From contig JBBRSP010000044.1 of NCBI GenBank assembly GCA_038245295.1, forward strand, positions 1-35,187: 35,187 nt of DNA, in the 5' to 3' direction. Below the pieces are notes generated by a model. It did no database searches. It was not told the DNA's origin and worked only from the letters and a program-made list of their open reading frames with translations. Source of the stretch: Candidatus Binatia bacterium (GTDB lineage Bacteria; Desulfobacterota; Binatia; HRBIN30). Positions 26,744 through 35,187 of the stretch are shown here, one piece after another (the stretch's first letter is position 1; each line of letters opens with the position of its first letter). The position numbers and the translations under genes were made by a program.

Positions 26744-26760
26744 TGAGCGCAACGCCTCGA

Positions 26761-26837
26761 AGGCTTAGGCAAGGGCTGAGGCTGAGATTGAGAGCCAACC
26801 GTTACCCGAGCCTGAGCCTACGCCCTTGCCTAAGCCT
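26761..26837. repeat. Solo AGGCTG/CAGCCT hexamer-repeat hairpin
   Basis: aggcttaggcaagggctgaggctgag ... cctgagcctacgcccttgcctaagcct, with a perfect outer 16-bp inverted repeat. Same family as the arms flanking the four-helix-bundle genes. Confidence 0.85.
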
Positions 26838-26858
26838 CCCAAAGAAGAGGAACCCAAG

Positions 26859-28168: not shown

Positions 28169-28173
28169 AATAT

Positions 28174-28254
28174 GCGAGGGTGGCGGAATGGCAGACGCGC
28201 CAGTTTGAGGGACTGGTGGGTAACACCGTGGGGGTTCAAGTCCCCCTCCTCGCA
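28174..28254 (+). tRNA. tRNA-Leu(GAG), CCA not encoded
   Basis: Acceptor GCGAGGG/TCCTCGC plus discriminator A, D-arm GGCGGAATGGCAGACGC, anticodon arm CCAGT-TTGAGGG-ACTGG, long variable arm, T-arm GGGGGTTCAAGTCCCCC. Followed by TCA. Confidence 0.97.
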
Positions 28255-28354
28255 TCATCCTCAGCCTCAGCCTCAGCCTACGCCCTTGCCTAAGCCTTTG
28301 ACGGCTGATGCTGAGGAAGGCTCGGGCAGAGGCATAGGCTCAGGCATGAGCTGA

Positions 28355-28738
28355 TCAGTCACTCGCTGTCTGCTCGAGGCACTGCCGCTCGCAGTGCTTA
28401 ACCAACCCAATCAACATCGCGACGATCATGCGCAGTTGCTCTCTGCCAATCTCGAGCTTGGCTTGCTCAACCAGTTCCAGTTCACGGAGGATGTCGAGGA
28501 TCCCGGCGCACTCCGTCGCTGAACGTCTCGCGATCCGATAGAACCTCGCCTTCTCTCGCTTGGAGAATTCTCCCGCTCCTTCGGCAATGTTGACCACGAT
28601 GGATGCCGAGGCGCGATCCATTTGGTCGGCGAGCCCGCCGCGCCGCCGCAGGATCTGCGGGCGAACCTGGTCGGCGAACTTCACAAACTGCAGGCCGCGT
28701 CGATACACTTCCATTCGTTCGTGATCAAAATCTCGCAT
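28355..28738 (-). CDS. Four helix bundle protein (23S rRNA IVP-like family), copy 1
   Basis: FDHERMEVY, LADQMDRASASIVVNIAEG, RFYRIARRSATEC and IVAMLIGL are typical of this family. Confidence 0.9.
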   Translation of the reverse strand: MRDFDHERMEVYRRGLQFVKFADQVRPQILRRRGGLADQMDRASASIVVNIAEGAGEFSKREKARFYRIARRSATECAGILDILRELELVEQAKLEIGREQLRMIVAMLIGLVKHCERQCLEQTASD

Positions 28739-28878
28739 CCGTGAAGTTTGGCGCGTTCCAGTGATCGATCAATGACTGCACGGCAGTCAGCCTCAGCCGA
28801 AGCCTTGCCTCCGCCTTTGACGGCTGAGGCTGAAGGCTGGGGCAAAGGCAGGGGCCCAGGCAAAGCCATGATTTCTGC

Positions 28879-28891
28879 CAACGTCTTGATA
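28879..28891 (-). promoter_or_regulatory. IHF consensus site
   Basis: Minus strand TATCAAGACGTTG is an exact WATCAANNNNTTR match. The copy 2 counterpart at 34503-34515 has 1 mismatch. Confidence 0.5.
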
Positions 28892-29401
28892 ACTTCCTCT
28901 CCCGCATCCACGGCGCCGCCCCTCCGACGCACCAGGAGCCCCAGGATCGCTTCCCAAGCCCTGGGATGACCTCCCCTACGCACGCAAACTCAACGTTTTT
29001 CAGCAATCTCAGGATGGAACCCCTGAAAACAAAGGAGTTTCTCAGCATCAAGCGTGCGCGCCGGTAGTGATTTGCGGTTCCCAACGATCCACCCGTCGAA
29101 CGCGTCCGAGAATCGTTAGGCAAGCTCGACTCAGCGCTGGCGCGGTGAACGGGGAAGAGACGCGGGGGGAAGAGACGGGACATCCACTCCCCATCGCTCG
29201 CCGAACGTCAGGAACGTTAGTGATTTGACGGTCATCGATCGGGGCTGGTTGGCTGTGGTTGGCCGACGCCGTCGACCGGTGGATGTCCTGCCAATCAACT
29301 CGGAACATGCTCAACCAACATCGAGGTCAAGAACAGCTCGGGACCGGGATCCTTCTCCAGAACGGCTCCAACATCGATCTAGTTGCCCGGTGTTGCGCCG
29401 A

Positions 29402-29430
29402 TTGACGGGGTCTATCCCTTCTGTCAGGCT
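29402..29430 (+). promoter_or_regulatory. Candidate sigma70 promoter for the cargo operon
   Basis: TTGACG-N17-CAGGCT with TGn before the -10, 56 nt upstream of ATG 29487. Confidence 0.35.
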
Positions 29431-29486
29431 TCGCCGGCTCATCGCGACCGGGCGACGTCGCAGCAGCAGAACGGGGGCGGGGCCTC

Positions 29487-32400
29487 ATGGATAATCCGAA
29501 AAGGCGACCGGCTTGGCGAGGAACAGCGCTCGCTTCTGTTGTTGCCGCTCTGATGATCGCTGCTGCACCCGCCAGCGCGACGCATTTCAATGGTGCTTCT
29601 ATCAGTTGGTACAGGGACGTGTCCTACACCGTCCCCAATATGATCCGCATCGTGGTCACCTACGATTCCACTTGGCGCTGGTCGTACTCCGCCTTTACCC
29701 CTACCTTTCCAAGCGTCGGCCAGACCTTCAGCGGAATCGGAGGCCTGGCGACCTACGATCTCAACGGGACACAAGTGGGGTCCGTGCAACTCACCCCAAC
29801 CGTACTCTACGTCGATGCAGCGGAAGACCGCTTCTACGCGCGCAGCGTCGTGACTCTGGACCTCCCGGCTTCAGGCTTCCCTTACACGGTCCAACAAACC
29901 GGCGGCAATCGGCTGAGCAGCCTAGAAGAGGGGAATCACGACACTTCGTGGCTGCAGCAAACCACCATCAACTTGCCCTCTGGCCCGCCAACCAATCCGC
30001 TCCGCTCCGCGGCTCTCACCGTGCCCTATCCGCAACGCATTCACTTGCCGGTGAACACGCCGGCATCCATACTCCTGCCGATCAAACCTCACGACAACCT
30101 GGTCGATGTCGTGCGCTTTGCGCCATCACTCAACTCTCTCCTGGTTCAAACGCGTCCCATGTCGCTGGCGTCGGGGTACTGCCCGTACGCAAGCGGGTGC
30201 ACGGATTGCAACACCAGCTTCACCGGCTCGTGCAGTGGCGGCATGACCATCACCGGGCAAAGACTCAATTGGACCCCGACCCGCACGTCGGCTCAGTTTC
30301 CCACGGCGGGCTTTGGGCTCTACGCTGTGCAGTTCACGTTCGACAGTATTGATTTTAACGGGATATCGAGGGCGACTGCGCCGTTCGACATCGTCTTCGA
30401 GGTAGAAAACCAGTGTCCGACCGGTTCGCCGTGCCGCACTCCCGCCAGTGTCTCGGTAGCGGTACAGCCGACTTACTCGGTGGTGTCGGGAAACACTCTC
30501 GAGATTCCAATCACCGCAAGCTCCAGCGATACGACGGTCAATCTCCTGAATACGACTCTGCCAGGCAGCGCCACCTTGAGTCCGCTCACCGGCTCCGCAC
30601 CGCTCAGCTCAACCCTCACCTATACTCCTCAAGCATCGGAGGCCGGCGTTCACCAGGTATGCTTCCAGGCGATCACCAACGGCGGCGACCTCAGCAGCAT
30701 CCAGTGCACCGATATCTCGGTGGTTGCCGCGGCAACCCCGACACCGACTGTAACTCCGACGATGACCAACTCACCCACGCCCGGGAATTTCTGGTCGGCC
30801 CTTCCCACCATTGCCCTGGCGCGGACTTCTCACACCGCGACCACCTTGGCCAACGGTAAGGTTTTGATTGCGGGTGGCCAGGACAGTAATTCGTATCCGA
30901 CCGCGGCTGCGCTCTATGATCCCTCTACCAATAGTTGGAGTGCCGCAGGGGTCCTGGCCACCGGCCGCAACGGCCACACGGCCACCCTGTTGAACGACGG
31001 TAAGGTTCTCGTTGTCGGCGGCCGCGGGGCGGCCGGCTTCCTCAACACTGTCGAGCTATACGACCCGATTACCAACAGTTGGAGTCCCGCGGCCCCCATC
31101 GGCACCCCGCGCGATTTCCACCGGGCAGTCCTGCTGGCGAGCGGCAAACTGCTGATCACCGGCGGGCGTAACTCGTCCGGTGTGGCCCTGAAAAATGCCG
31201 AATTGTACGATGCGGTGGCCAACAGCTGGAGCGCTGCGACCGACATGAACTTCGCCCACTTTAGCCATAGCGCCACACTCTTCGCTGACGGCAAGGTGTT
31301 GGTGGCGGGTGGCCACAACACCTATCGCAATGCCGAGCTCTACGACCCCATTGCGAATAGTTGGAGCGATGCCGGTCAGATGATCAACGGGCGAAGGGAA
31401 CACACCGCAACGCTGATCGGCGGTGGCAAAGTTCTGGTCGTCGGTGGCGCGAATCTCACCACTATCGGGTTGGACAGCGCCGAATTGTACGACCCGCTCG
31501 CCAATAGTTGGAGCGCCGCCGCCACAATGCCCGAGCCGCGCGATCTCCACACCGCCACGCTGTTGGGGAATGGCAAGGTACTGGTCGTCGGCGGCTATAC
31601 CCCCACGCAGTATCCAACGAGCTCCCTGCTCTATGATCCGTGGCACGATACCTGGACTGGCGATGCGCCGTTGATCCCTGGCCGCGTCGCCCACACCGCG
31701 ACCTTGATCGCGTTCGATAAAATCCTGGTTGTCGGCGGCAACAACAACGGTCTGCTGAATGACGCGAATCAATACACTTCGATCTTCAACGACCCGACTC
31801 CGACCGCGACACTGCCACCTACCCAGACGGCGACGGTAGCGCCGACTCAAACCCCGCCCCCGACCCAGACCGAGACCCCGACTCAAACTCCAACGCAAAC
31901 TCCGACCGAAACGCCGACCGAAACAGTGGCCGCGGTGGCGACGCAGACTCCGACCGGTATCGCTACGAATACTGTAACCAACACGGCGACGGTCACCCCA
32001 ACCAACACAACAGCGGCCACCCCGACCGGTACGGCGACGCAGTCGGCAACCCTGCCCCCGACTGTCAGCCCAACCGCCACCGCGGCAAGTGCTTTCGTTC
32101 CACCGGATGCAGCCACGGGGAAATGCGAGAAGTCGGTGGCGGCTTTGCGCAGCAAGCTCTTTGCGTGCACGACCAAGTGCAAGACGAAGCAAGCCGCCGC
32201 GGCACTCGACGGCAAATCGTTCGACATCACCGCGTGCGAGCAAGCAGCGGAGAAGTCCTGTCGCGCCTCGTTCGATGCCAAAGGCGCCAAGTTGCTCGCC
32301 AAGGTGCCGGCTCTCTGCCCGGCCTGCCGGAACGCAAGCGCACAAGACGAGGTTGCTGATCTCGTGTCGGCTTTCCTGTCGAGCAACAATGGCCTCATCT

Positions 32401-32768
32401 ACTGCGCCGGGACGACGAGCTTCGGCGGCGGCAATAGCGGCTTCATTCCTCCGGATGCGAACACGGCGAAATGCGCCAGCAGGGTCATCGCTAAACTCAA
32501 GAAGCTGTCGTCGTGCGTCGACAAGTGCGAGATCAAGCGCGCCAACGCCGCATTCAAGGGCAAGAGTTTCGACGCCGCCGGGTGCAAACAGACCGGCTGT
32601 CGCGCCCGCTACGACGGCAAGGTCGCCAAGTTGCTGGCGCAGCTCCCAGCTCTCTGCCCGCCTTGTTTCGACGCCAGCGCACAGAGCAACGTCGCTGATC
32701 TCGTCGTCGGGTTCAGTGAGGCCAGCGCCGCTCAGATCTACTGCGCCGGGACAACACCGTTGCCGTGA
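29487..32768 (+). CDS. Large secreted protein: N-terminal domain, 7 Kelch repeats, Thr/Pro linker, two Cys-rich C-terminal repeats
   Basis: Signal peptide (..APASA|THF), seven xxxH.A.LL..GKVL..GG blades, a TPT-rich linker, and a duplicated F[VI]PPDA...IYCAGTT domain with 8 Cys each. Confidence 0.9.
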   Translation: MDNPKRRPAWRGTALASVVAALMIAAAPASATHFNGASISWYRDVSYTVPNMIRIVVTYDSTWRWSYSAFTPTFPSVGQTFSGIGGLATYDLNGTQVGSVQLTPTVLYVDAAEDRFYARSVVTLDLPASGFPYTVQQTGGNRLSSLEEGNHDTSWLQQTTINLPSGPPTNPLRSAALTVPYPQRIHLPVNTPASILLPIKPHDNLVDVVRFAPSLNSLLVQTRPMSLASGYCPYASGCTDCNTSFTGSCSGGMTITGQRLNWTPTRTSAQFPTAGFGLYAVQFTFDSIDFNGISRATAPFDIVFEVENQCPTGSPCRTPASVSVAVQPTYSVVSGNTLEIPITASSSDTTVNLLNTTLPGSATLSPLTGSAPLSSTLTYTPQASEAGVHQVCFQAITNGGDLSSIQCTDISVVAAATPTPTVTPTMTNSPTPGNFWSALPTIALARTSHTATTLANGKVLIAGGQDSNSYPTAAALYDPSTNSWSAAGVLATGRNGHTATLLNDGKVLVVGGRGAAGFLNTVELYDPITNSWSPAAPIGTPRDFHRAVLLASGKLLITGGRNSSGVALKNAELYDAVANSWSAATDMNFAHFSHSATLFADGKVLVAGGHNTYRNAELYDPIANSWSDAGQMINGRREHTATLIGGGKVLVVGGANLTTIGLDSAELYDPLANSWSAAATMPEPRDLHTATLLGNGKVLVVGGYTPTQYPTSSLLYDPWHDTWTGDAPLIPGRVAHTATLIAFDKILVVGGNNNGLLNDANQYTSIFNDPTPTATLPPTQTATVAPTQTPPPTQTETPTQTPTQTPTETPTETVAAVATQTPTGIATNTVTNTATVTPTNTTAATPTGTATQSATLPPTVSPTATAASAFVPPDAATGKCEKSVAALRSKLFACTTKCKTKQAAAALDGKSFDITACEQAAEKSCRASFDAKGAKLLAKVPALCPACRNASAQDEVADLVSAFLSSNNGLIYCAGTTSFGGGNSGFIPPDANTAKCASRVIAKLKKLSSCVDKCEIKRANAAFKGKSFDAAGCKQTGCRARYDGKVAKLLAQLPALCPPCFDASAQSNVADLVVGFSEASAAQIYCAGTTPLP

Positions 32769-33676
32769 TCGCGTGCCGGCTATTGGCGATCCCGATCCTG
32801 GCGCTGATCGCGGCGTGCGACCAGCGCCAGGCGTCACCGCCGTCATCCGCGGTTGGTGCGCGTCTGTCGCCCACCTCGGTGCGGATGTCCATGGACGCAT
32901 TACACCAGCTCGGCGGAGTTCCGCCCGGTTGGCAGGTGAGTCCGTTGCAGGGCGATGTCGCCGCCGGACGCCGCAGTTTCAAGGATCTCGGTTGTGCTTC
33001 CTGCCACAAGGTGGCCGGCGAAAAATTTTCCGAATCCCCGCCCACTGGTCCCGGGCCCGAGCTCACAGGCATGGGTGCGCATCACCCGGCGGCCTACTTT
33101 CTCGAATCGATCATCAACCCCAACGCCATCGTCGTCGACGGCCCGGGATGGATCACCGAGCAGGGGCAGTCGATGATGCCCGTCTATCCGGACCTCACCG
33201 TGACGCAGCTCGAAGACCTGGTCGCCTACCTCATATCGCTTACGTCCGGTGACCCGCATGCCGGGCACTCCATGCCGCCGGCGGCCAACCCGGGAGAAGG
33301 TAGCATCGAGCGCCCGCTACCTCCCGCGACCCAGGCCAGCGCCTTCCTGACTCAGCGCTACGAGGTCTTGCCTGGGCGGGTCCAGGCGTTTGAGGCGTGG
33401 TTCCGCGACGAGGGCGCGCGACGCCTGCTCGCCGTCGACGGATTGCTGACGATCGAAACCTTCGTCGATGCGACACGCGGCTCGCCCTCGGTGACCACTG
33501 TATGGGGCTTCCGCGACAACGCCGCGCTACTCGCCTTTGTGAATTCAAACGATGCTGCCACCATTGCTCTCGGCACCGAATTCGACCGGTTCATTACCCC
33601 GCACGACCACAAGGTCTTCCGCACTCCGCCCGTCTACCGAGCCGAGGACCTGTCGCGTCAAAGAGTTTCTCGGTAG
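32765..33676 (+). CDS. Lipoprotein monoheme cytochrome c fused to a C-terminal alpha/beta domain
   Basis: Lipobox LIAAC, heme motif CASCH, GPGPEL, ESIINP and a SMMP axial-Met candidate. GTGA overlap with the upstream stop. Confidence 0.85.
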   Translation: MIACRLLAIPILALIAACDQRQASPPSSAVGARLSPTSVRMSMDALHQLGGVPPGWQVSPLQGDVAAGRRSFKDLGCASCHKVAGEKFSESPPTGPGPELTGMGAHHPAAYFLESIINPNAIVVDGPGWITEQGQSMMPVYPDLTVTQLEDLVAYLISLTSGDPHAGHSMPPAANPGEGSIERPLPPATQASAFLTQRYEVLPGRVQAFEAWFRDEGARRLLAVDGLLTIETFVDATRGSPSVTTVWGFRDNAALLAFVNSNDAATIALGTEFDRFITPHDHKVFRTPPVYRAEDLSRQRVSR

Positions 33677-33767
33677 TCGCACTCACAGCGGTTTCCCCGA
33701 CCAATCGTCGCCATTGATGGTTGGCGTTGTTGTGCCCAAGGTGCGGGAGTTTGAGGATCTCAGTTCT

Positions 33768-33861
33768 GGTTGCCCCCCGGGGGGCCAACCTACGCCACGC
33801 AGTGCCACACGGTGCAACACTGCCCCAAGAAAAGCGTAGTCATTTCAACTTTTTCTTGGGG
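33768..33861. other. attP-arm-like segment: palindrome, three 10-bp direct repeats, inverted repeat
   Basis: ggttgccccccggggggccaacc; tacgccacgc/agtgccacac/ggtgcaacac; ccccaagaaaa...ttttcttgggg abutting the tRNA fragment. Confidence 0.5.
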
Positions 33862-34744
33862 TTCCCCCCTCCTCGCATCATCCTCAGCCTCAGCCTACGC
33901 CCTTGCCTACGCCTTTGACGGCTGAGTCTGAGGAAAGGCTTGGGCAGAGGCATAGGCTAAGGCATGAGCTGGTCAGTCACTCGAGGGCTGCTCGCGGCAC
34001 TGCCGCTCGCAGTGCTTCACCAACCCAATCAACATCGCGACGATCATGCGCAGTTGCTCTTTACCAATCTCGAGCTTGGCTTGCTCGACCAGGCCCAGTT
34101 CACGGAGGATGTCTAGAATCCCGGCGCACTCCGTCGCCGAACGTCTCGCGATCCGATAGAACCGCGCCTTCTCGCGCTTGGCGAATTCTCCCGCTCCCTC
34201 GGCGATGTTCAGTACAATGGAGGCAGAGGCACGATCCATCTGATTGGCGAGCCCACCGCGTCGGCGCAGGATCTGCGGGCGGATCTGGTCGGCGAACGTC
34301 ACAAACTGTAGCGCACGTCGATACACTTCCATTCGTTCGTGATCGAAATCTCGCATGACTGGACCTTGGCTCGTTCGAGCCCCCGATCAATGACTGCACG
34401 GCAGCCATCCTCAGCCTCAGCCTCCGCCCTTGCCTAAGCCTGTGACGGCTGAGTCTGAGGAAGGCTTAGGCAAAATGGCAGAGGCTAAGGCAAAGCGATG
34501 GCCCACGTCTTGATAACTTCCGTTTCCGCCTCCGCGGCGCCGCTCCTCCAACGCACCAGGAAGCCCCAGGATCGCTTCCCAGGCCTCAGGATGACTTACC
34601 CTACGTACGCACACTCAACGTTTTTCGGCGACTCCCGGATGGGACCATTGAAAACAAAGGGGTTTCTCAGCGACAAACGAGGGCGCCGGCAGTGATTTGC
34701 GGTTCCCGTCGCTCCAGTCGTCGAACACGTCCGAGAATCGTCAG
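33858..34744. repeat. Module copy 2, starting with the duplicated tRNA-Leu 3' end (attR-like)
   Basis: ggggttc-ccccctcctcgcatcatcctcagcctcagcc matches the tRNA 3' end and its downstream sequence. The rest is colinear with 28231-29119. Confidence 0.95.
33973..34356 (-). CDS. Four helix bundle protein, copy 2
   Basis: 127 aa, with 11 substitutions versus copy 1 (~91% identity) by manual comparison. Confidence 0.9.
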   Translation of the reverse strand: MRDFDHERMEVYRRALQFVTFADQIRPQILRRRGGLANQMDRASASIVLNIAEGAGEFAKREKARFYRIARRSATECAGILDILRELGLVEQAKLEIGKEQLRMIVAMLIGLVKHCERQCREQPSSD

Positions 34745-35059
34745 AACAGCGCGCACCCCACCGACGCGCTGAATACTCACCATCCCCCAAGAGGCAGTCA
34801 GTAGAGTCCACCGGCTGCGCTCGTTCTCGCCCTGCCCCGCGGCCGGGCTCCCCTCCGGTCCGTCAGCGAAGGAGGGATGCGATCCCGACATCCCATCGGC
34901 GCCGATCGCCCCGCCACGAAGCGAGGACGAATGGATCACCCCGATCCAAGAGACCGTTTATTCTCACCGACCGGCGACAGTCGCTTCGCGGGAAGGCCGC
35001 AAAAAGGGACATAGAGGTTATTCGGGTGATTCCAGACGAATCGCGCGAATCGCCGCTAC

Positions 35060-35187
35060 GAGCTTGTGAAAAAATCGCCTCCTTCCACGAGAACCATGCG
35101 ATACACATCGTGACGCGATGGGTTGTGGCGGGAGGTGACGAGGATGGGGCAGAGCGGAGCGCGGGTGGTCGAGGCAGATCGGAGTCA
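35060..35187 (+). mobile_element. Possible left end of an IS1182-like element (truncated by the window)
   Basis: gagcttgtgaaaaaatc resembles an IS terminus. RBS ggaggt precedes ATG 35144, giving MGQSGARVVEADRS(Q), reminiscent of IS1182-family transposase N-termini (from memory). Only 14 codons are visible. Confidence 0.35.

Follow-up and report, generated by a model that had tools for sequence, protein, structure and literature searches.

The window analysed here is the whole of contig C44 (JBBRSP010000044.1; 35,187 nucleotides) of a Candidatus Binatia genome, G000, which is a metagenome bin of 6.63 Mb in 129 contigs and is 96.6% complete. (Contigs of G000 are labelled C1-C53 and so on, and related genomes are labelled from G002 upward.) Toward the end of the window lies a tRNA-Leu(GAG) gene whose 3' end recurs downstream. 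Both the tRNA and its displaced 3' core are followed by the same module, which is composed of a hairpin, a gene for a four-helix-bundle protein, a second hairpin, and one copy of a dispersed, helically phased element of about 230 bp. The duplication of this tRNA flank and the nature of the dispersed element are considered below.

The duplicated flank of tRNA-Leu(GAG)

The tRNA-Leu(GAG) gene (28173..28256, forward strand; ARAGORN and Rfam) lies behind secG and is an integration hotspot, with relatives' islands at the same tRNA. It is followed by copy 1 of the module: the hexamer-repeat hairpin A (28261..28346), a member of a genome-wide family; the four-helix-bundle gene (28355..28738, reverse strand); hairpin B (28787..28865); and the dispersed element (28884..29112, forward strand), which has a weak left XerC-like box (28884-28892), a conserved core (about 28925-29050), and a right XerC-like box (29104-29112), without a XerD arm. 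The cargo comprises a gene for a secreted Kelch-repeat protein with a Cys-rich tail (29487..32768, forward), parts of which have paralogs elsewhere in G000, and a gene for a cytochrome c protein (32765..33676, forward), which has a 65% paralog on C9. Then come an attR arm of the tRNA-Leu(GAG) tyrosine-integrase island family (33770..33863, forward), the displaced tRNA 3' core (33858..33879, forward; read from the sequence and the alignment of the copies), and copy 2 of the module, with hairpin A at 33880..33964, the four-helix gene at 33973..34356 (reverse), hairpin B at 34405..34495, and the element at 34508..34737 (forward; left box 34508-34516, right box 34729-34737). After copy 2 there is a 250-base tail (34745..34991, forward) that is common to the window and C34 at 88%, a further repeat, and the first part of an insertion sequence like IS1182 (IS; 35056..35187, forward), with which the contig ends. 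Against NF033551, a sister copy of this IS on C20 has a partial match of 268.9 bits, for a cut-off of 270.

A preliminary description of this DNA, made from its letters, had reported that the tRNA 3' end recurs with a colinear, diverged module, and this holds: 28231-29119 and 33858-34744 align with 84.5% identity over 903 columns. Identity by segment is 0.89 in the core, 0.90 in hairpin A, 0.90 in the gene, 0.84 in hairpin B, 0.76-0.84 in the arm, and 0.46 in the following 81 bases. The similarity was also said to end abruptly, and the drop from 84% to 46% past gtccgagaatcgt is real, though a faint 35-base extension of likeness may follow; scores equal to that of the weak continuation occur in 155 of 5000 random stretches (versus copy 2) and in 416 of 5000 (versus C34).

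The module content given earlier is likewise confirmed. The four-helix genes match PF05635 and TIGR02436 (73.8 bits against a cut-off of 33.8, and 72 bits against a cut-off of 24, respectively). They are 91% identical, with synonymous divergence (dS) of 0.39, nonsynonymous divergence (dN) of 0.04, and dN/dS of 0.105, indicating that both have been under selection across a long separation. The hairpins were identified by a search for the family and by fold tests, in which three of the four reach z -4.1 to -5.0; the fourth, hairpin B of copy 1, has z -1.2. (Another hairpin of the same family, with z -7.0, lies at 26755-26842 between pgk and tpiA.) The same protein family includes the S23p/IVP four-helix genes of 23S rRNA intervening sequences, which are also framed by hairpins (PMC4990558). 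The window genes differ in lying behind a tRNA (ARAGORN, Rfam), outside rRNA, with hairpins that fold locally, and thus are not part of a 23S rRNA intervening sequence.

Other parts of the earlier account have to be redrawn. Its "IHF-like site" in the module is the left XerC-like box of the dispersed element, and the "shared left arm" is no dedicated att arm, being made up of two dispersed families, the hairpins at about 21 genomic sites and the element at 56. The right arm, placed at 33680-33877, was drawn too wide; by comparison with relatives' arms and by a hidden Markov model (HMM), the att-like arm is 33770-33863. Finally, the second core is not an intact copy, since it is without 4 bases of the T loop (28238-28241).

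The duplication might in principle have been made by misassembly of two strains. The read-derived data are contigs of two runs of one study, X1 (possibly the source sample) and X2. The source is a metagenome bin in many contigs, and the X1 unitigs break where the shared core-hairpin begins, as a misassembly would have it. Nevertheless, a single X1 unitig spans 28413-33894 with zero differences and at a depth of 11.9, comparable to the 10.6 of the secG-tRNA unitig, and the longest identical run between the two 0.9-kb copies is 42 bases. These two observations make misassembly unlikely and, with a comparable layout at other tRNAs of G000, leave it extremely improbable. In X2, the stretch is present in pieces only, with unitigs again breaking at the shared start. 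None of the 15 joints listed (63 more are unlisted) is a circle or empty-site joint, a result that the breaks at the shared start deprive of weight either way.

The islet and the origin of the tandem

The attR arm was recognised through islands of related genomes. The interval 33770-33863 matches the arm ahead of the second core in 8 of 16 stretches fetched from relatives, with 7 of these matches covering 50-96 bases at 72-81%. An HMM built from the attR arms of 13 relatives finds one strong match in G000, at 33774-33857 (E 9e-13; the next has E 0.87), and both arm-type and IHF-like sites are present in this arm. This model finds no second attR arm in the assembly, and the core occurs twice, both times in the window, with no third core in the assembly. 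An HMM of 11 tRNA-side arms finds no attL arm in the window, but this absence is soft, the model having recovered only 5 of 11 held-out arms (E<0.005). As stated previously, no integrase lies between the two copies, either in the window annotation or in a PF00589 scan. G000 has 11 PF00589 matches, none of them on C44; the best are 22-29% identical to relatives' integrases, and thus no cognate integrase was found. The 4 T-loop bases lost from the second core are kept in relatives, and we infer that the crossover is located in the T loop. Having lost these bases, the islet is probably immobile.

At this tRNA, relatives present a different picture. An integrase ends directly behind the tRNA in three of them (translated) and in two more by eye, and several have an attL arm there; short relics are common. 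(In G003 and G010, relics of about 110 bases that consist of att alone lie behind tRNA-Leu(GAG).) At the secG-tRNA-Leu(GAG) loci of 18 relatives, hairpins and four-helix genes are absent. Parts of the tail behind copy 2 match the DUF2958-RadC leader of relatives' integrative and conjugative elements (ICEs), including the G002 ICE at the same tRNA-Leu(GAG), and single homologs of the arm core precede this leader in G007 and G019. The window resembles tyrosine-integrase islands at tRNAs (ICEs, integrative and mobilizable elements, and their relics) in having a duplicated 3' core, the attR arm of the family, and variable cargo. It departs from them in that a 0.86-kb copy of the flank replaces the attL arm and integrase. 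Short extension of att identity into terminators is known; in relatives' islands, the longest such extension into the flank is 48 bases (G026), compared with 863 bases in the window.

Similar duplications exist elsewhere in G000. Hairpins of the family occupy about 21 sites in G000 (37 matches counted by strand) and stand behind 5 of 46 tRNAs, 4 of 50 tRNA calls having been dropped as false. At tRNA-Leu(TAA), where the hairpin differs and the gene lies on the opposite strand, a flank duplication has identity to +381; at tRNA-Glu, identity extends to +88. No integrase is present in either interval. At a tRNA-Arg island with an integrase, identity ends at +3. Hairpin partners at one tRNA are 90-99% identical, compared with 74-81% across tRNAs. 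Because the other two tRNAs duplicate different modules, whatever sits behind a tRNA gets copied, and there is no single shared left arm.

The loci themselves are varied. C1:451056-456631 contains tRNA-Leu(TAA), a different, C-rich hairpin, a four-helix gene, a hairpin, 5.4 kb of cargo, an att-like arm, and a 45-base core, beyond which (with C53:1-411) there are a hairpin and a 74-codon four-helix fragment, without an integrase. C4:263875-266805 contains tRNA-Glu, a hairpin, a toxin-antitoxin-like pair, an att-like arm, the core, and a hairpin, after which come a 3' remnant of a four-helix gene, CSLREA cargo, and a hairpin. At C10:104627-154464, a 49.6-kb tRNA-Val island with defence-like genes has no PF00589 match and carries a second short core with a hairpin 147 bases beyond attR. 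Tandem hairpin arrays with a four-helix gene are found in G004, G038, and G027, in two genomes behind tRNA-Leu(CAG); in G038 a gene pair lies between two hairpin arrays, and in G004 the repeated hairpin unit takes in the last tRNA bases. The tRNA-plus-hairpin pattern has 0 matches in metagenomes.

How, then, did the tandem arise? In the preliminary description, two related non-autonomous units, each composed of core, module, cargo, and right arm, were stacked in a tRNA-anchored array and moved in trans; the right end of unit 2 would then be lost or unassembled. Parts of this proposal survive. The attR arm is genuine; the arm and tail are ICE-derived and stand in the same order as in relatives' ICEs, one of which is at this very tRNA; a dS of 0.39 between the copies suits separate lineages; the layout recurs at two more tRNAs; and the contig terminates at an IS, so that the right end of unit 2 may be lost. 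On the other side, an assembly of this completeness yields no second arm, third core, or cognate integrase, and no attL arm by the soft model; the core is damaged; and different modules are duplicated at the other tRNAs. Stacked units are thus unlikely. What stands of the "integrase-less islets" is one islet with a true attR arm, and mobilisation in trans is not supported, with no cognate integrase in the assembly and a damaged core. It is also very improbable, and we disfavour the idea, that a cassette of hairpin and four-helix gene homed twice, independently, to the tRNA 3' sequence. Hairpins behind five tRNAs of G000 and related cassettes behind tRNA-Leu(CAG) in G004 and G038 would suit such homing, but the shared stretch also contains the unrelated dispersed element, and the hairpins paired at one tRNA share more identity with each other than with those at other tRNAs.

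Most likely, the window holds a single defunct islet, with a copy of the tRNA flank on either side. Its history probably began when an ICE integrated at tRNA-Leu(GAG), which would have pushed the original flank away to become copy 2. A circle or fragment consisting of the ICE right end, attR, and the flank of a related lineage would then have re-entered at the tRNA, or an unequal crossover would have taken place, giving the order tRNA-flank-cargo-attR-flank without an attL arm or integrase; the core would later have lost its 4 bases. The 863-base extension without an attL arm fits either route, and lambda bio transducing particles are a comparable case of the re-entry of an attR-bearing piece. 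Several points count against this history. The ICE homologs of the arm and tail suit two related ICE remnants equally well, and judging from these sequences both units may be descended from ICE remnants. No genome of the same genus exists to order the events. A search of 60 relatives with the Glu and Leu(TAA) arms gave no clear homolog, only a short repeat. The tandem represents a variant form of the ordinary decay of islands.

A dispersed, phased element with an XerC-like box

The element that closes each copy of the flank belongs to a sizeable, lineage-restricted family with fixed geometry, helical phasing, a terminal box, even spacing along the genome, and no RNA structure. The family model finds 56 copies in G000 and 0 in the reversed genome, with no further weak cores, and 53 of 54 first-pass copies lie between gene calls. 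Four of the 56 copies, which have no anchor, were dropped to give a set of 52; omission of five more (three recent sisters and two that are IS-broken) gives 47 independent copies. The distance from the first box to the anchor is 52 bases in 45 of 52 copies, and that from the anchor to the second box is 36 in 37 copies and 47 in 9, so that indels are of 11 bp. AT content has a period of 10-11.25 (0 of 2000 shuffles), which takes in the period of about 10.75 bp seen in the arms of gyrase sites. Of 92 core columns, 41 are at least 90% conserved; the spacers, with a mean of 0.41, are saturated, and the median pairwise identity of copies is 0.57. Conserved motifs beside saturated spacers would not be expected from neutral decay of one master.

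Several familiar kinds of element were considered and rejected. A structured RNA is contradicted by the lack of an Rfam match, by mean z values of -0.13 and -0.66, and by 4 pairs with 0 compensatory changes; an integron attC, by copies without a paired box or hairpin; and a miniature inverted-repeat transposable element, by boxes at both ends in 8 of 47 copies only, mostly in direct orientation. Target-site duplication is not evident in 7 pair alignments, for which no formal test was made. (Two copies, at C13:166 and C5:260750, are broken at an identical base by an identical insertion end.)

G000 contains the central 18-mer 49 times, and each of 51 other genomes of the order contains it no more than once. 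The core may also bear a likeness to conjugative transfer origins. In 40 relatives, the family model gives 0-2 partial matches, found in 9 of the 40, mostly in mobile-element contexts and without a terminal box; relatives' ICEs carry single, box-less homologs of the element. The full two-block patterns have 0 matches in viral contigs, metagenome contigs, and plasmids, and thus no autonomous partner was found there. The 21-base first motif alone is present at 6 genome and 9 viral loci that have no gene in common; it occurs singly in phages and other genomes, and once as an inverted pair. A literature search, which covered few subscription journals, returned no description of such an element family or of flank-duplicating islets.

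The terminal box was recognised by comparison with dif. A dif-like pattern seeded from G000 is found at two mismatches in 40 of 41 genomes, a tally that overstates the case since the reversed control gives 21, but most genomes have one clear dif-like site with a common spacer that the pattern did not require. The probable dif of G000 is C26:21384-21404, where the third-position skew changes sign across the site. Within the clade, the left arm of dif is invariant and the outer half of the right, XerD-type arm is variable. With a matrix made from the dif left arm of 10 relatives and G000, a right box is found in 30 of 52 copies, compared with 148 of 3000 random windows. Right boxes lie at +107/108, +116-119, +125-128, and +138-140. 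Left boxes lie at -102 to -111 in either orientation, against a background of 44 of 423. The left and right positions are about equidistant from the centre of the element, which we take to be IHF-like from its motif. Among the 47 independent copies, 8 have both boxes, 13 the left only, 20 the right only, and 6 neither; thus 41 have a box on at least one side, and the sides are negatively associated (Fisher p 0.016). Elements cover 0.3% of G000 and account for nine of its 30 top-scoring 9-mers. An A two bases upstream is common to the boxes and dif, and TC after the box exceeds chance expectation (25 and 28 of 43). No XerD arm follows any of the 30 right boxes at a spacer of 6; two score >3 at a spacer of 7. 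G000 encodes XerC, XerD, GyrA, a ParC-like second subunit, four HU/IHF genes, and SMC. Dif-like sites in G002 were set aside as relatives of the element, being IS91-type ends with both arms and no homology to it; many IS91-type elements of that genome carry a complete dif-like site about 27 bases from their end, and similar ends exist in G021. The end of an attC-like site in G019 (locus L118:1143) also resembles the XerC arm.

Copies of the element are spaced evenly, about one per 110 kb on average. The 19 within-contig gaps have a coefficient of variation of 0.49, whereas copies placed at random between genes give 0.95 (0 of 5000 draws as even), and there are 2 gaps <40 kb where 12.9 are expected (conditional P 0.0004). 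The result is stable under 5 other nulls, and three other repeat families of G000 have coefficients of 1.1-1.5. The shortest gap is that of the window pair, which fits hitch-hiking with the duplication. Purging of close direct repeats was rejected as a cause: deletion between direct repeats does not explain the spacing, since the two close pairs are in direct orientation, and each of the 8 inverted pairs is at least 50 kb apart. The spacing could result from target immunity of the Tn7 kind or from selection that favours a single site in each domain. Convergent gaps are favoured (18 of 49 versus 290 of 1439, p 0.005). There is no replichore polarity, 20 of 51 copies being on the G-rich strand, and the dif contig has 0 copies. 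One copy, at C1:177034, lies 57 bases behind pepA, which may be chance. Two palindromes at C9:148328 and 148506 are presumably parS-like.

Possible function of the element

Together, the observations suggest one islet remnant plus an evenly spaced, helically phased site of about 230 bp at which XerC, without recombining, would act as a scaffold for the loading of a type II topoisomerase, a reading to which we give slightly less than even confidence. The element is likely the mark of a signal, so far undescribed, by which the chromosome is organised or untangled. In the proposed mechanism, a central bend would bring the left and right box positions side by side, so that one box on either side would suffice, and XerC on the box, without recombining, would load a type II topoisomerase at regular intervals. 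The topoisomerase step itself, with XerC-anchored stations drawn by analogy with E. coli dif, is tentative. As to origin, the core of the element may have descended from a single wrapped-DNA site of ICEs, gained its IHF-like centre and XerC box, and then multiplied, with selection keeping about one copy per 110 kb. The most far-reaching version is rather doubtful: that an ICE-derived site was domesticated into a grid of about 55 stations, one per about 110 kb, where XerC anchors a topoisomerase or other chromosome-folding machine, the grid having been spread by a gene-less element with a spacing rule.

Known systems provide partial precedents. At the dif-XerC-topoisomerase IV hot spot of E. 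coli, the XerC box acts without need of the XerD box and XerC is a non-catalytic scaffold, as described in PMC4865107 and PMC10117906. There, one site lies at the terminus; here, there would be a putative topoisomerase site beside the box in 56 evenly spaced elements that lie away from dif and have long phased arms. Gyrase wraps DNA with arms of 10.75-bp periodicity and has a preference for DNA downstream of transcription, and mobile elements are the source of its strong sites (PMC6379681). Like the strong sites of Mu and pSC101 and the bacterial interspersed mosaic element BIME-2 covered in PMC6379681, the element would be wrapped DNA with a 10-11 bp period, and it has a presumed mobile-element ancestry and enrichment downstream of genes; it differs from them in having a phased XerC-like box and even spacing, without dyad symmetry or repetitive extragenic palindromes. 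The plasmid-type sites cer and psi have about 180 bp of phased sequence beside a XerC arm (PMC5357621 and bioRxiv 10.64898/2026.02.23.706985), and in length and phasing the element fits this accessory region, the part bound by PepA/ArgR, whereas it is chromosomal and multicopy and has a box on either side without a XerD arm. Finally, in the XDS of Bacillus, a Xer half-site is used without recombination, as proposed for the element, to judge from citations in PMC9226527 and PMC11840125. The element matches the other arm, is not at the terminus, and has a long accessory part; neither the XerD arm nor the terminus clustering that these citations give for XDS is found in it.

A number of observations tell against a XerC-anchored topoisomerase site. 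The 250-kb contig C6 is without any copy. (Its interval C6:172000-224000 is the only Replic_Relax-bearing ICE of G000.) The near absence of the family from 51 other genomes of the order is odd for a core function. Nor do the copies have dyad symmetry of the gyrase type, their best r being 0.22 against a null mean of 0.26. The determinants of type IIA cleavage reach a maximum at a single site, but a maximum as high arises in 330 of 2000 column shuffles, and the published 130-base motif was compared by eye. In E. coli, the cut lies much nearer the box (PMC10117906). The box itself is called a XerC arm by analogy with dif of E. coli and Vibrio.

Two other explanations of the element have to be set beside a XerC-anchored topoisomerase site. 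It could be a selfish mini-element moved by Xer, either cer/psi-like or a minicircle of about 220-240 bp, with spacing due to target immunity; the window copies could then excise the islet by XerC-first exchange. Several points would suit this. The first motif and the XerC arm are about 178 bp apart, close to the approximately 180-bp accessory region of cer (PMC5357621); several sister pairs lose likeness at the boxes; where a central region would lie, its first bases are the same in the two window copies; G000 has pepA with one copy 57 bp behind it; and the family is lineage-restricted. Movement by Xer is nonetheless unlikely, since 0 of 30 right boxes are followed by a XerD arm at a 6-base spacer, boxes at both ends occur in 8 of 47 copies only, and two sister pairs stay alike for 130-250 bp past the box. 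In addition, deletion by Xer would be expected to remove direct repeats, yet all close pairs are of this kind, and conserved motifs with saturated spacers need selection in place. Alternatively, the elements could act on SMC as barriers or unloading points, or some other nucleoid protein could dock there; XerD, or a different dimeric protein, would then bind the box. Even spacing and the presence of SMC in G000 agree with this, and the excess of TC after the box hints at a palindrome; in Bacillus, XerD without XerC unloads SMC at dif-like XDS, as cited in PMC9226527 and PMC11840125. Yet XDS carry the XerD arm and lie at the terminus, while the element matches the other arm, has no copy on the dif contig, and shows no replichore polarity, so that we think a role in SMC unloading or docking improbable.

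The tandem shows that tRNA-flank modules, composed of a hairpin and a four-helix gene, are copied and moved with island remnants, a way of spreading for which no transposase is required. Sequence-encoded, evenly spaced organising sites are rare in bacteria, where the known ones cluster at the origin or terminus or are irregular repeats. With its fixed geometry, Xer half-site, and measurable spacing, the element family is a substrate with which to ask if Xer acts outside dif and whether topological domains can be hard-wired. If the proposal of XerC-anchored topoisomerase sites is true, the dif hot spot would have been turned into a chromosome-wide organising system.

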